From: a virus
Lineage: Duplodnaviria; Caudoviricetes
IMG/VR virus record: IMGVR_UViG_3300028591_005215
Coordinates: 32,001 to 96,000 of that record
Strand: one strand, 5' to 3'
DNA: 64,000 nt
A program made the translations under genes and the position numbers. Shown piece by piece: positions 10,575 through 39,998 of this stretch (its first letter is position 1; each line of letters opens with the position of its first letter). A model generated the notes under the pieces. It saw nothing but the letters and a program-made list of their open reading frames with translations, was not told the DNA's origin and did not search any database.

Positions 10575-10672
10575 AATTTAATAAATCGTTTAGATATAAA
10601 TATCTTACTGATTTATTAAAAAAGCAAAAAAGATGATGAATAACTTATTACTCACCATCTTTTAAATAGCCT

Positions 10673-20164: not shown

Positions 20165-20224
20165 GTTTTTATGTGCTATTTAATATTTATAGATAAATTA
20201 TAATTTTTATAAAAATATTATATA

Positions 20225-35760: not shown

Positions 35761-36891
35761 TTATTTAATTACTACTTCATTATCAATGCAAGTTGCACTA
35801 AAAACGTAATTTTTCTTATAGTCATTCTCCAGCATTAAATCAGTAATTTTATCTTCAATATTATCTTGAACAAGCCTAATAATAGGACGAGCACCAAATT
35901 CCTTTTGACTAACTGCTTTAACGTGTAAGTAATCTACTACTTTGTCATCATATTTTAAATCATAATGTAATTCATTTAATCTATTGGCTAATTTATTAAT
36001 TTCTAACTTAACAATAGTATTAAGATTTTCATCAGTCAAATTGTTGAAATAAACTATTTTATCAATTCTATTTAAGAATTCTGGTGTAAACTTCTTTTTT
36101 AATGACTTTTCTATGATAGATTTTTTATTTGCTGTCTCGTTAGTGTTAAAACCGACACCACCACCAAGTTCAGCAGATTCTTTAGCACCAATATTAGATG
36201 TCATTAGAACAATTACGTTTTTAAAATTAACAATTTGTCCTGCTGAATCAGTTAGTCTTCCTTCATCAAATAATTGCAAGAATAAATTATAAACTTCTTG
36301 GTCAGCTTTTTCTATTTCATCAAGAAGCAAAACGCAATGCTGCTTATTTTTAATTGCTTCTGTTAATTGACCACCATTTTCATATCCTATATATCCAGGT
36401 GCAGCACCAGTTAATTTAGCAACTGAATTCTTTTCAGAATATTCTGACATATCAATCCTGACTAAAGCCTTCTCATCACCAAAAATTTCTTCGGCAAGTT
36501 TTTTCGCAATTAGCGTGTTATGACTTAGTATTCCATTTGTAAAATATCTATGGTTTGAATTGTCAGACAACGCCAAATCGTACATCTCTTCATATTCATT
36601 TGTATTAATAACGTCAGTGACGGTTTCAATACCATTTATAGTATAGATTTTATCACCTACGGCAAAATCTTTTGCAAATTTTTCTTCTAATTTTTCATTG
36701 AAAAGAATGTGGTCATCTGCACATTCAAGTTCTTTACCACTGGATGTTTTAATAATATATTTCAGATAAGGTATTGTCTTGTTTATAGAAACGATGTCAG
36801 CAAACCCATTATCAGTCTCAACTTCGTAATCTGTAACATCAATTATTTCTGTAAATTTTCTATTTATAGTATTTGATAATTTTTCATTCAT
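35761..36891 (-). CDS. clpC: ClpC/ClpB C-terminal half preceded by C-intein (125 aa, 36891-36517); start revised to MNEKLS
   Basis: ECADDHIL, MYDL, GILSHN|TLIAKKLAE; RIDMSEY, GAAPGYIGY, LLDEIEKA, GRLTD, GARP. Confidence 0.9.
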   Translation of the reverse strand: MNEKLSNTINRKFTEIIDVTDYEVETDNGFADIVSINKTIPYLKYIIKTSSGKELECADDHILFNEKLEEKFAKDFAVGDKIYTINGIETVTDVINTNEYEEMYDLALSDNSNHRYFTNGILSHNTLIAKKLAEEIFGDEKALVRIDMSEYSEKNSVAKLTGAAPGYIGYENGGQLTEAIKNKQHCVLLLDEIEKADQEVYNLFLQLFDEGRLTDSAGQIVNFKNVIVLMTSNIGAKESAELGGGVGFNTNETANKKSIIEKSLKKKFTPEFLNRIDKIVYFNNLTDENLNTIVKLEINKLANRLNELHYDLKYDDKVVDYLHVKAVSQKEFGARPIIRLVQDNIEDKITDLMLENDYKKNYVFSATCIDNEVVIK

Positions 36892-38090
36892 TTTTTTAAA
36901 AAATTTATACATTCATTAATTACTTTTTCTTTATTTTCCCTATAATCTTTTTCCCACACTACAAACTCTTCAAATCCATTTCTTTCAGCAATATTTTTTT
37001 TATCTTCATCTATTTCCCAAAGTTCTTTAGCTGTCTTATCGTGAAATGGATTTGGTTTATCAGATGGCTTAAACATTTTTGGGTTAGCATGATAAATATC
37101 TCCGTTAAATTCAATGAATTTTCTTTTATTCAAATCACAGAAATCGTACCTATAGTAAAAATTATTGTCATTTTTTAAAGTATATTCTCTATTTTTATCT
37201 TCATAAAAAACAAAATCTTTTTCTTCTTCTGGATATTTTTTCAATATTTCGCCAAAAAGCTCTTGGGATATTTTGGAATAACCTAGTTGATGAAAACCAG
37301 TTTTGTTTAGGCTATCTTGCCATTTTTCTTGTCTTTTCTTCCATCTTTTTAGTCCTTCATTTTCTCCGTATTTTTTTATGCACTTTTTAAGTGAAAATGT
37401 GGATTGTATTTCAGCAACTTTTTCCTTAGCATCATTCTCAGAGTAACCTTTTTCAATCCAGTGTTCTATGCACCTAACACTATTTTTTCTGCGTTCGCTT
37501 TTGCTTTTTGATGCATTTCTTTTAGCAAGTTCTGTTTGATATTCAGATACTTTTTTTTTAGCATCATTTTTAGAATAACCTCTTTTAAGCCAGTATTCAA
37601 CACACCAAATGCTTCTTTCTTTAAAGAATTTATTGCAATCTTTGCCAAGTGATTCTATATATTTTTTGTTAACTATTGGTACTTTACCAGCAGCTTTTTT
37701 ACCCCTTTCAGATTGCATTTTTGATATTATTTCTTTTCCTTCATTTTTAGAATAACCTTTTTTAAGCCAATATTCTATACACAACTTATTACGCTCCTTC
37801 ATATATTCATTAATGAAGTCGTCATCGAATCCACGTTCTAATAGTCCTTCACGAGAACTATGCCAATGCTTGATGAATGGAATTTTTTTAATAACATCTT
37901 TTATTAGTGTTAATTTGTTTATTTTTCCATCATTTAAACAATAGTAATCAAAGCAATCTTTTAATGCGTTTATTATTTTTGGATTTTTAAAGTTTAGTAA
38001 AGGATTAAATGACTTTAATACTTCAACAAATTCATTAAAATTTAAATCGTCACCAAATGTTTTTCTTTTTTTATCTAATAATATTGTCAT
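36888..38090 (-). CDS. free-standing Vsr/DUF559-like homing endonuclease
   Basis: Three (I/V)E(Y/H)W(L/I)xxGYS repeats; YDF...IEFNGDIYHANP...VVWEKDY. Confidence 0.75.
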   Translation of the reverse strand: MTILLDKKRKTFGDDLNFNEFVEVLKSFNPLLNFKNPKIINALKDCFDYYCLNDGKINKLTLIKDVIKKIPFIKHWHSSREGLLERGFDDDFINEYMKERNKLCIEYWLKKGYSKNEGKEIISKMQSERGKKAAGKVPIVNKKYIESLGKDCNKFFKERSIWCVEYWLKRGYSKNDAKKKVSEYQTELAKRNASKSKSERRKNSVRCIEHWIEKGYSENDAKEKVAEIQSTFSLKKCIKKYGENEGLKRWKKRQEKWQDSLNKTGFHQLGYSKISQELFGEILKKYPEEEKDFVFYEDKNREYTLKNDNNFYYRYDFCDLNKRKFIEFNGDIYHANPKMFKPSDKPNPFHDKTAKELWEIDEDKKNIAERNGFEEFVVWEKDYRENKEKVINECINFLKK

Positions 38091-38114
38091 AATATTTTGT
38101 TTTCTATATAAATA

Positions 38115-39998
38115 TTATGATTTTTTATATTTATTGGCTCTACTGGCTAACTTTTTAAACTCTTCTATCGTAAGTTCTTGTATTTCAAGTGTTTTCTTAT
38201 TTCTAACCCTTATTTTCGTGTTTTTTGTAACGCATTTTCCACAACCCGTAGGACCTCCCATTAGGATGTTAGCCATAGTTTTTGTTTTATCACCAAGTCC
38301 TACCTTGTTTCTTTTAATGACTTTGCAAATAGCATCAACAGCTTCATCTTGCCCTATAACACTATTTTTTAAAATTTCATCAATATGTGCAATCTTCTTT
38401 TTTTCGTTTGAACTGAGCTTTGAAACAGGCACCTTTACCATTTCTGAAATTGTTTCATTAATATCATCTGCGTCAATAATTACTTCTTTTGATTTTTTAG
38501 ATGACTGCTCACGTTTATAATCACTTAATTCTTTTTTGATTACATTTTCTTCTAACGTAATAGCATCAATTTTTTCAAATTCTCCAGCATTAAGATACGT
38601 TGATTTTTCTTCTTCAATTCCATCTAATCTTTTTTTCATTGCAATAATTTCTTTTGGCTCTTTTTCACCGATTGATGTTGATGCGCCTGCTAAATCAATA
38701 ACATCAAAAGCAGAATCTGGTAAACTCCTATCAGTTATATACCTTTCAGCAAGTTCAACTGCTTTTTCTATTGCTTCATCAGTGTATTTAACATTATGAA
38801 ATTCTTCATAATAACCTTTAGACTGCTTCAAAGTTTCAATGGCTTCTTTAGTACTAGGTGCTTCAATAATGATACGTTGCATTTTTCTTGAAATAGACGT
38901 ATTAGATTCAATTGAATTTCTATAATCTTTAAATGTTGTTGTACCAATAACTCTAACATCACCGCCAGATAAAATATCTCCAATCATTCCTGAAATATCA
39001 GTATCTTTATCTTTAGTTCCACTTTTTAAAACATTCTGCATATCATCAATAAAAAGAATGTACTTTGATGATGATTTTAATTCATCAAATAATCCTTTAA
39101 TGCGTTCTTCAAACATTCCTCTAAAGTGTGTTCCAGAAACAATTGCCATAATATCAATCATAACGATTTCTTTACCTTCAAGTATTGATGGTACGTTACC
39201 TTTTGAAATCATAGATGCCAAACCATACACAATTTCAGTCTTACCTACGCCACCATTACCTACAAGAATTACGTTGTTTTTCTTTCGTCTTGCAAGAACC
39301 TTGATAATTTCATTAATTTCATCTTTCCTTCCTACAAGTTCATCAATTTTACCGTTCTTAGCTAATTCATTCAAGTTAGTTGTAAACTTTGACACATATT
39401 CGTCTTTTGTTACAACGCTTGAAGTATTTACTTCACTTTTTAGAGGGAAAATAGCTGGTTTAAGCGAATTACCAATTTTATTACTGATAAAGCCTTTAGG
39501 CCTTATTGCTTTTGGTGTATGTTTTGGTTTAACTTTGTCTTCACTGCATTTATCTAAAATAAAGCTATATTCAATCCCTACTGTTTTGAATACATCCTTA
39601 ATTTTAATTTCGTTAGATGGGTTTAAAATAGAAAGTAATACATGTTCAGTGCCAACTTTTTTAGAACCTGTTGCTTCCATTTCTTTTTCAGCATTTTCTA
39701 AAATTTTATTTAGCTCAAAATCAAAGTTTACTTTACTATTGTCTTTATTTTTTACAATTGGCTTAGAATGTTCCTTTAATACGTTTATATAAATTTCTTT
39801 TAGTTCATACATATTATTGGACATTAAACAATTGTCAAGTATCATATTTGCGTGACAATTCTTTGTATCAAGAATTGAAACCATTAAGTATTCAGGCGTA
39901 AAAATTTCAGTTGGGAATTCATTTACAAGGATATCAACCATATAAGTCAAGACACCCTGTAGCTCATAAGAATAAATATCGTTTTTGCTTTCACTCAT
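38115..39998 (-). CDS. clpC: ClpC/ClpB N-terminal half ending in a 39-aa N-intein (38234-38118)
   Basis: Clp-N repeats (TPEYL, GTEHVLL), GRKDE, RRKKNN, GNGGVGKT, LPDSAFDVID, GQDEA, GPTGCGK|CVTKNTKI. Confidence 0.9.
   Translation of the reverse strand: MSESKNDIYSYELQGVLTYMVDILVNEFPTEIFTPEYLMVSILDTKNCHANMILDNCLMSNNMYELKEIYINVLKEHSKPIVKNKDNSKVNFDFELNKILENAEKEMEATGSKKVGTEHVLLSILNPSNEIKIKDVFKTVGIEYSFILDKCSEDKVKPKHTPKAIRPKGFISNKIGNSLKPAIFPLKSEVNTSSVVTKDEYVSKFTTNLNELAKNGKIDELVGRKDEINEIIKVLARRKKNNVILVGNGGVGKTEIVYGLASMISKGNVPSILEGKEIVMIDIMAIVSGTHFRGMFEERIKGLFDELKSSSKYILFIDDMQNVLKSGTKDKDTDISGMIGDILSGGDVRVIGTTTFKDYRNSIESNTSISRKMQRIIIEAPSTKEAIETLKQSKGYYEEFHNVKYTDEAIEKAVELAERYITDRSLPDSAFDVIDLAGASTSIGEKEPKEIIAMKKRLDGIEEEKSTYLNAGEFEKIDAITLEENVIKKELSDYKREQSSKKSKEVIIDADDINETISEMVKVPVSKLSSNEKKKIAHIDEILKNSVIGQDEAVDAICKVIKRNKVGLGDKTKTMANILMGGPTGCGKCVTKNTKIRVRNKKTLEIQELTIEEFKKLASRANKYKKS

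Follow-up and report, generated by a model that had tools for sequence, protein, structure and literature searches.

A phage clpC gene very probably fractured by a mobile cassette with an atypically split intein and a predicted Vsr-like homing endonuclease

In the fractured genes described by Dassa, London, Stoddard, Schueler-Furman and Pietrokovski (Dassa et al. 2009, NAR, PMC2677866), a phage enzyme is split at an intein site, its N-terminal half ending in an N-terminal intein piece (IntN) and a stop codon; a spacer of 27–51 nt follows, and then a free-standing Vsr-like nuclease gene, with a hairpin and a promoter upstream of it, whose 3' end overlaps the open reading frame (ORF) of the C-terminal intein piece (IntC). 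The hosts published there are eight kinds of enzymes of DNA synthesis, repair and packaging, and Clp is not mentioned in that paper. Natural split inteins with short N-terminal pieces are few (VidaL, PolB16, AceL-TerL and GOS-TerL; PMC13014065); published natural IntN lengths range from 15 to 37 aa, and the split was described at position S1 for VidaL and at S2 for AceL-TerL and GOS-TerL (PMC13014065). Here we analyse a stretch of 64,000 nucleotides (the window; approx. 29% G+C), which represents bases 32001–96000 of the 279,749-bp IMG/VR virus record IMGVR_UViG_3300028591_005215, from a giant gut phage. In this window, the gene of a ClpC-type protein unfoldase is very probably a genuine fractured gene, into which a 1,718-bp mobile cassette (36517–38234) has been inserted within the codons of the second Walker A motif, GPTGCGK/T.

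The locus consists of three abutting ORFs on the minus strand, at 38115–39998, 36888–38090 and 35761–36891 (the third alternatively starting from 36912). A first-pass annotation, made from the letters alone, had proposed this three-gene anatomy, and every feature was confirmed at the position it had assigned (Table 1). The first ORF encodes 627 aa, namely 588 aa of the N-terminal part of Clp, which end with GPTGCGK, and a 39-aa tail (CVTKNT...KKS) closed by TAA. The ATG of the nuclease gene, at 38090, is located 24 nt (eight sense codons) past this TAA and in the same frame as IntN, and the nuclease stop codon TGA (36888–36890) and the IntC ATG (36889–36891) overlap as ATGA next to a run of seven A residues (36891–36897). 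The third ORF starts with 125 aa ending in ...GILSHN and continues with TLIAKKLAE and the remainder of the second AAA module (D2).

Table 1. Features of the split clpC locus in the window
Feature	Position	Strand	Remarks
N-extein, ClpC-type unfoldase, 588 aa	38235..39998	-	Pfam AAA_lid_9, AAA; phrog_4871
IntN, 39 aa	38118..38234	-	Starts with Cys1, CVTKNTKIRVRN; ends with NKYKKS
TAA stop of the N-terminal half	38115..38117	-	Same stop in L036
Spacer region with ATATTTAT motif and hairpin	38087..38120	-	
Predicted homing-endonuclease gene, 400 aa	36888..38090	-	AF2 model, Vsr-like fold
IntC, 125 aa (132 aa from the ATG at 36912)	36517..36891	-	CatC match, HINT model
C-extein, 251 aa and stop	35761..36516	-	AAA_2, ClpB_D2-small

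The N-extein showed a weak Pfam match to Clp_N and matches to AAA (2.9e-9) and AAA_lid_9 (7.8e-26) over the first AAA module (D1) and its lid; after a short middle region, it holds the start of D2 as far as the Walker A motif ...GPTGCGK. The C-extein matched AAA_2 (2.2e-51, from profile position 16) and ClpB_D2-small (2.5e-17). Since the N-extein match to PHROG family phrog_4871, ‘ATP-dependent protease’ (1.4e-106), ends at profile position 510 and that of the C-extein starts at position 510, the two exteins abut exactly, and excision of the insert restores GPTGCGK-T with nothing gained or lost. The two AAA+ modules, the D2-small domain and a GVGF loop place the protein in Hsp100/Clp class I, among the unfoldases of the ClpC/ClpA type. 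The GVGF loop of the C-extein sits where unfoldases of the ClpA/C/X type bear the ClpP-docking tripeptide, and it may be the counterpart of the latter. As the phage genome also encodes a ClpP outside the window (G000:C1:261572–262093, locus L041; PF00574, 3.1e-57), a proteolytic partner for the fractured ClpC is probably supplied by the phage itself, and the spliced protein is probably the ATPase component of a phage ClpCP protease.

With the published fractured genes (PMC2677866) the locus has in common a phage enzyme split at an intein site, the N-terminal half with IntN ending in a stop codon, a short spacer (24 nt and the stop in this case) and a free-standing gene of a predicted Vsr-like nuclease that overlaps the IntC ORF; a predicted hairpin and a putative promoter element lie ahead of the nuclease gene. 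It differs from those genes in its host, a protein unfoldase of the ClpC type, in an overlap of 4 nt (25 nt if counted from the upstream ATG), and in the motif in front of the nuclease gene, which is ATATTTAT and not the T4-type TATAAATA.

Used as a query against IMG/VR, the C-extein recovered 33 related loci, in 30 of which the insert is missing. In one of the latter, L003, exteins 98–99% identical to those of the window form one uninterrupted gene of 839 codons, joined as ...GCGK/TLIAKK without a gap, the junction lying exactly at K/T. L004/L036 (IMGVR_UViG_3300011989_000010) possesses the same cassette, TAA and A-run as the window. Two further loci, L037 and L040, belong to distant phages (N-extein 36–37% and C-extein 61–64% identical), have the same three-gene layout in the same codon, and show break sequences unrelated to those of the window. 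In L037, IntN has 32 aa, the spacer 54 nt and the nuclease/IntC overlap 7 nt; its nuclease is in frame with IntN across a spacer containing two further in-frame stops. The respective values in L040 are 31 aa, 44 nt and 11 nt, with the nuclease out of frame with the N-terminal half. In a collection of 5.8 billion proteins we detected at least 210 clusters of separate proteins of 373–417 aa composed of IntC and the C-terminal half of Clp, together with 14 clusters of N-terminal halves (615–629 aa), all ending in an IntN of 34–39 aa; the split layout of ClpC is common in metagenomes. A contiguous intein-containing ClpC was not found in the range of 344–1098 aa, nor in a search above 672 aa, where only TerL C-terminal halves were present, which constitutes weak negative evidence. 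Thus, of the two alleles that the first-pass annotation had suggested looking for in related phages, the intein-less one was recovered and the contiguous one was not. Among phage GenBank records, the only blastn matches were distant ones to Clp in jumbo phages, and the cassette had no annotated counterpart there.

IntN comprises a conserved core of approx. 28 aa and a tail variable in length and sequence: IntNs of the relatives, 31–39 aa long, share this core and differ in the stops that end them (after 31, 32, 34 or 38 residues). With 39 aa the window's IntN stands at the long end of the natural range and is not exceptionally short. Its net charge of +8 is opposite to that of IntC (−12). IntC possesses the motifs ECADDH (block B), MYDL (block F) and ILSHN (block G), and in a phmmer search of PDB sequences it matched CatC (6dsl_B, 4e-5), as well as gp41-1 and VidaL. 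Its AlphaFold2 (AF2) model, built from 26 homologues (pLDDT 92.3), was aligned by Foldseek with VidaL (2.2e-7; root-mean-square deviation (rmsd) 1.3 Å, 102 columns, 29% identity), Cat chain B (3.6e-6; TM 0.72, 28% identity) and gp41-1, and the matches listed at E≤0.001 were inteins, plus two intein-like HINT (BIL) domains. According to this model, the C-piece has a HINT fold that is closest to VidaL and Cat. The gp41-1 alignment begins at residue 25 of that protein; the N-piece would therefore supply block A, the first two strands and the first helix, with the split falling after about residue 24–28. This alignment places the split at the S2 site, as in AceL-TerL and GOS-TerL, unlike the S1 site of VidaL.

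Throughout the alignment of 26 IntC sequences, C57-A58-D59-x-H61 (block B), M103-x-D105 (block F) and L122-S123-H124-N125 (block G) are invariant, and the residues of a class 1 intein are all present: Cys1, block B His, block F Asp, block G His-Asn and Thr+1. Thr+1 had been regarded as unusual in the first-pass annotation; it was found in 113 of the 121 C-terminal halves examined, so that most members of this intein family have it as a rule, and it is a normal, if less common, class 1 nucleophile, known for example from the Mxe GyrA and Neq Pol inteins (PMC11766414). The ratio of non-synonymous to synonymous substitution rates (dN/dS) was 0.11 against L036 and 0.23 against L037 for IntN, 0.16 and 0.14, respectively, for IntC, and 0.22–0.35 for the nuclease, which shows purifying selection on all three parts of the cassette. 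Constraint on the intein makes sense only if splicing, and hence ClpC, matters to the phage, and we infer that the two halves of ClpC are joined by trans-splicing. The block B codons (ECADDHI) also contain a 7-bp inverted repeat, GAATGTG...CACATTC (36705–36726), which is terminator-like on both strands and probably a coincidence of conserved coding sequence.

The nearest described inteins are those of GOS-TerL, AceL-TerL and Cat (PDB 6DSL), with which the ClpC intein shares a short IntN with block A only, a long IntC with blocks B, F and G, a split after the first helix (S2) and insertion at a P-loop; close relatives of its IntC are found on TerL C-terminal halves (50–52% identity). Unlike these inteins, it resides in the D2 module of ClpC and has Thr+1 (Cys+1 in AceL, GOS and Cat; PMC11766414), its IntN numbers 39 aa vs 25, 37 and 30 aa in these inteins, and its block B reads CADDH, where they have S/T-x-x-H. 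It is a relative of the atypical TerL inteins in a new host, and not a TerL intein. VidaL (PDB 6VGV), the best structural match of the IntC model, is split at S1 with an IntN of 16 aa (PMC13014065), i.e. one element earlier than the ClpC intein.

The nuclease of 400 aa is composed of an N-terminal domain, three (C)xEYWxxKGYSxxxA repeats and a C-terminal Vsr-like/EDxHD domain (aa 271–400; 36891–37280). The whole protein matched neither PDB sequences (phmmer) nor Pfam, and its fold was consequently approached through an alignment of 50 sequences, from a family with 5,454 representatives at E≤0.001, and an AF2 model (pLDDT 92.1). In the alignment, D316, E327, G330 and H334 are invariant, and D331, D361 (at least 90%), K364 and W379 nearly so; 11 of the 50 homologues match DUF559 and ten match REase_MTES_1575, both being Vsr-like restriction-endonuclease folds. 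Foldseek with the whole 400-aa model returned weak E-values, and clear Z-scores were obtained after re-alignment with VIA: residues 271–400 were superimposed on E. coli Vsr (1cw0_A) with Z 11.3 and rmsd 2.9 Å over 110 aligned residues, and on I-Bth0305I (3r3p_A) with Z 10.8 and rmsd 2.3 Å (94/97 aligned). The spacing D316-11-E327-7-H334-27-D361 compares with D51-11-F62-7-H69-28-D97 in Vsr, the residue at position 62 being Glu in the homing family (PMC2677866). The model and the alignment thus identify the protein as a candidate free-standing homing endonuclease with a predicted Vsr-like (EDxHD) fold and Vsr-type catalytic spacing.

With I-Bth0305I, the EDxHD prototype (3R3P, PMC3239194), and with Vsr (1CW0), the cassette nuclease shares the predicted C-terminal fold, the Asp/Glu/His/Asp residues and the Vsr-like spacing; ahead of the nuclease domain it has a modular N-terminal region that may correspond to the NUMOD/HTH DNA-binding modules of EDxHD enzymes. 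It differs from I-Bth0305I in its setting, that enzyme being intron-encoded in recA and the cassette nuclease free-standing inside a split intein, and the sequence similarity between the two is below phmmer detection. The N-terminal two-thirds of the cassette nuclease are helical and include the three EYWxxxGYS repeats, for which no Pfam or PDB match was obtained; its extreme N-terminus varies by lineage, with a Cys-rich module in both L037 and L040. Elsewhere in the genome, outside the window, there is a second stand-alone nuclease of 181 aa (L002:1294–1839; G000:C1, approx. 177.1–177.6 kb), Vsr/DUF559-like, with the sequence ...LLEFDGSYYHSDP...RIWEKD; it is a free-standing paralogue with 33% identity to the catalytic domain of the cassette nuclease.

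The motif ATATTTAT, taken for a promoter in the first-pass annotation, is located at 38108–38115 and begins 25 nt ahead of the nuclease ATG. Its association with gene starts in this phage was borne out: it occurs in 11 of 54 upstream regions (15–60 nt before the ATG of window ORFs of at least 100 aa), against 2.1 expected and a maximum of six in 500 composition-matched shuffles. Many long ORFs, among them genes of the head and scaffold region, have it 25–51 nt before their ATG, with examples at 20183, 46789, 48889 and 56418 on the plus strand and at 10603, 18386, 35016 and 38115 on the minus strand. Across the whole window the octamer TATTTATA is not over-represented (19 occurrences vs 22 expected), only its position relative to gene starts being non-random, and (A/C)TATTTAT also precedes the nuclease gene in L037 and L040. 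We take ATATTTAT to be a probable promoter element of the phage that differs from the T4 late TATAAATA. A scan for sigma-70 promoters and terminators was uninformative in this sequence (35 sites vs 29 in shuffles). The TAA region is predicted to pair with the nuclease ATG in an 11-bp hairpin (arms 38110–38120 and 38087–38097; −7.0 kcal/mol, z = −3.95, one of 200 shuffles as good), and hairpin and motif together resemble the hairpin-promoter arrangement of fractured genes (PMC2677866).

The history of the cassette may be read from its divergence. Compared with L036, the insert shows 93–99% identity per 100-nt bin, except for single bins of 76% and 89%, and the clpC flanks show 60–85%, rising to 82–88% in the 100–200 nt adjoining the junctions. 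The synonymous divergence (dS) between the two is 0.17–0.20 for IntN, nuclease and IntC, against 2.1–2.4 for both exteins; the cassette therefore entered one of the two phages long after their clpC genes had diverged, and this pattern indicates a lateral and recent movement of the insert. Compared with the empty allele of L003 (96–99% identical), the window shows no difference in the 30 nt before the junction; on the downstream side (36487–36516 vs L003:6001–6030), the first 24 nt contain three synonymous differences, two of which are common to the cassette-bearing alleles of the window and L036. Differences so close to the insertion point are compatible with co-conversion or with target-site immunity, the numbers being too small for proof.

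Homology, predicted folds and comparative genomics all support the first-pass reading of a ClpC fractured by an atypically split intein, and the alternatives differ in what they make of the two breaks. A concern already attached to the TAA and the A-run was that the clpC gene holds a contiguous intein and owes its stop and its frame change to errors of sequencing or assembly, and both breaks do lie in A/T-rich, homopolymer-rich sequence (the seven-A run at 36891–36897 and the TAA within an in-frame spacer), with an extra A present in another A-run of the L036 nuclease gene. However, the same breaks, or breaks equivalent in function, recur in assemblies made independently from other samples, which have the same architecture with non-homologous break sequences and in one case a different frame relation; the two halves were called as separate proteins in the at least 210 and 14 clusters mentioned above, and the searches in the size ranges given above revealed no protein of approx. 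1,000 or 1,400 aa. Sequencing error is for these reasons excluded for practical purposes, and we give this explanation virtually no credence. Also unlikely is the first-pass view of the locus as a snapshot, in which one stop and one frameshift have just broken up a formerly contiguous intein that carried its nuclease domain inside. The frame of the nuclease speaks for it, continuing that of IntN across the TAA and eight sense codons in the window and L036 and being that of IntN in L037 too, yet two additional in-frame stops interrupt the L037 spacer and the frames differ in L040, so that this relation is not conserved, and the split layout is old, being common to lineages with dS >1.3. Moreover, the nuclease gene starts from an ATG of its own behind a motif of its own, the N-terminal domains of its product are interchangeable, the insertion occupies the S2 site instead of the canonical nuclease-domain site of contiguous inteins (PMC13014065), and the searches described above revealed no contiguous form. 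More in keeping with the data than a recent break is the model of PMC2677866, whereby an intein gene was invaded by a free-standing nuclease gene.

Two further explanations accept the split and dispense with splicing. Under one of them, the cassette killed clpC, and the halves of this pseudogene in the making are produced without being spliced, the loss being tolerated. ClpC is an accessory protein in phages, 30 of the 33 related loci carry no insert, and block B has Ala in place of Thr, all of which would suit a dead gene; the other splicing residues, however, are invariant across more than 20 diverse members, the intein pieces have dN/dS of 0.11–0.23 over dS of up to approx. 1.7, both extein ORFs are intact at every locus seen, without extra stops or indels, and an intein comes under selection only where its host protein is of importance, which makes this explanation improbable. 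The other, that the halves associate non-covalently through the intein pieces, has a precedent in a fractured phage gene rescued without covalent joining: the fragmented Aeh1 NrdA reportedly assembles through nuclease-derived interaction domains (PMC3045599). The opposite charges of IntN and IntC would agree with such docking. Against it stand the position of the break inside the Walker A loop, which would leave approx. 165 intein residues in the nucleotide pocket, and the invariance of the nucleophiles and the terminal Asn, which are not needed for docking, and we regard it as highly improbable.

Several observations nevertheless weigh against a functional, spliced and mobile fractured clpC. 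The usual Thr/Ser of block B is replaced by Ala (CADxH) throughout the IntC family, which is unusual, though invariant. The 39 aa of IntN alone gave no significant match among PDB sequences, only a chance ribosomal one, the query being too short. The dN/dS signal of the exteins may largely predate the insertion. In the nuclease gene of L036 (L036:5900–5925), whose cassette is otherwise 92–99% identical to that of the window, there are nine A residues in place of the eight in the window, and the last 35 residues, including the W379 strand, are lost, which may be due either to homing-endonuclease decay or to a homopolymer miscall. Finally, L037 has a weaker hairpin (z = −1.98), and L040 has none.

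If the locus is, as we think very probable, a working fractured gene, the basic IntN would dock on the acidic, largely pre-folded IntC and complete the HINT fold, whereupon Cys1, the block B His, the block F Asp, the terminal His-Asn and Thr+1 would perform class 1 trans-splicing. The product would be a ClpC of 839 aa with an intact GPTGCGKT P-loop, able to work with the phage ClpP. Translation of the C-terminal half is probably coupled to that of the nuclease gene through the ATGA overlap, and the hairpin over the nuclease ATG may hold translation of the nuclease low on read-through transcripts. The nuclease would cleave the insert-free clpC allele of co-infecting phages, and repair would copy the cassette in, which would explain its spread; indirect evidence for such cleavage is the much higher conservation of the cassette relative to its flanks.

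The same IntC family (50–63% identity) heads the C-terminal halves of three more hosts, always directly after the P-loop Lys: ClpX-type ATPases (P0051, P0055, P0057 and P0106), DnaB-like helicases with Ser+1 (P0048, P0060, P0076 and P0080) and large terminases, likewise with Ser+1 (P0122 and P0123). The GOS-TerL and AceL-TerL inteins would thus belong to a broader, P-loop-seeking lineage. A wider hypothesis, which we put forward as speculative and rather doubtful, is that a single S2-split Thr/Ser+1 intein lineage has spread to at least four unrelated phage P-loop ATPases, always at GK followed by T/S, and that the split of ClpC, beyond persisting selfishly, makes trans-splicing a temporal gate on a protease chaperone, timed by the firing of the ATATTTAT promoter. 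As the C-terminal half is probably coupled to the nuclease gene that bears ATATTTAT, the assembly of the unfoldase could be timed by that promoter.

In the literature library searched, queries for Clp ATPases as intein hosts retrieved only the chloroplast ClpP of Chlamydomonas and nothing for ClpA, ClpB, ClpC or ClpX. The ClpC element is not a new kind of system; ClpC appears to be unpublished as a host of this known kind of element. With it, fractured genes and natural atypically split inteins are extended from DNA metabolism and packaging to motors of protein quality control, i.e. ClpC and, in the relatives, ClpX. Its hundreds of natural variants, its Thr+1 and the Ala of its block B make this intein family a ready source of new tools and of sequence-function data, and a naturally split intein with a short IntN and Thr+1 is a candidate for protein semisynthesis, independently of the gating idea. 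The locus is, moreover, a natural experiment, with an empty site in a phage whose exteins are 98–99% identical, a cassette transferred recently into or from a diverged phage, and long-established, stable copies in more remote phages; as empty, recent and old alleles are all available, homing by an EDxHD nuclease is directly testable in this family.

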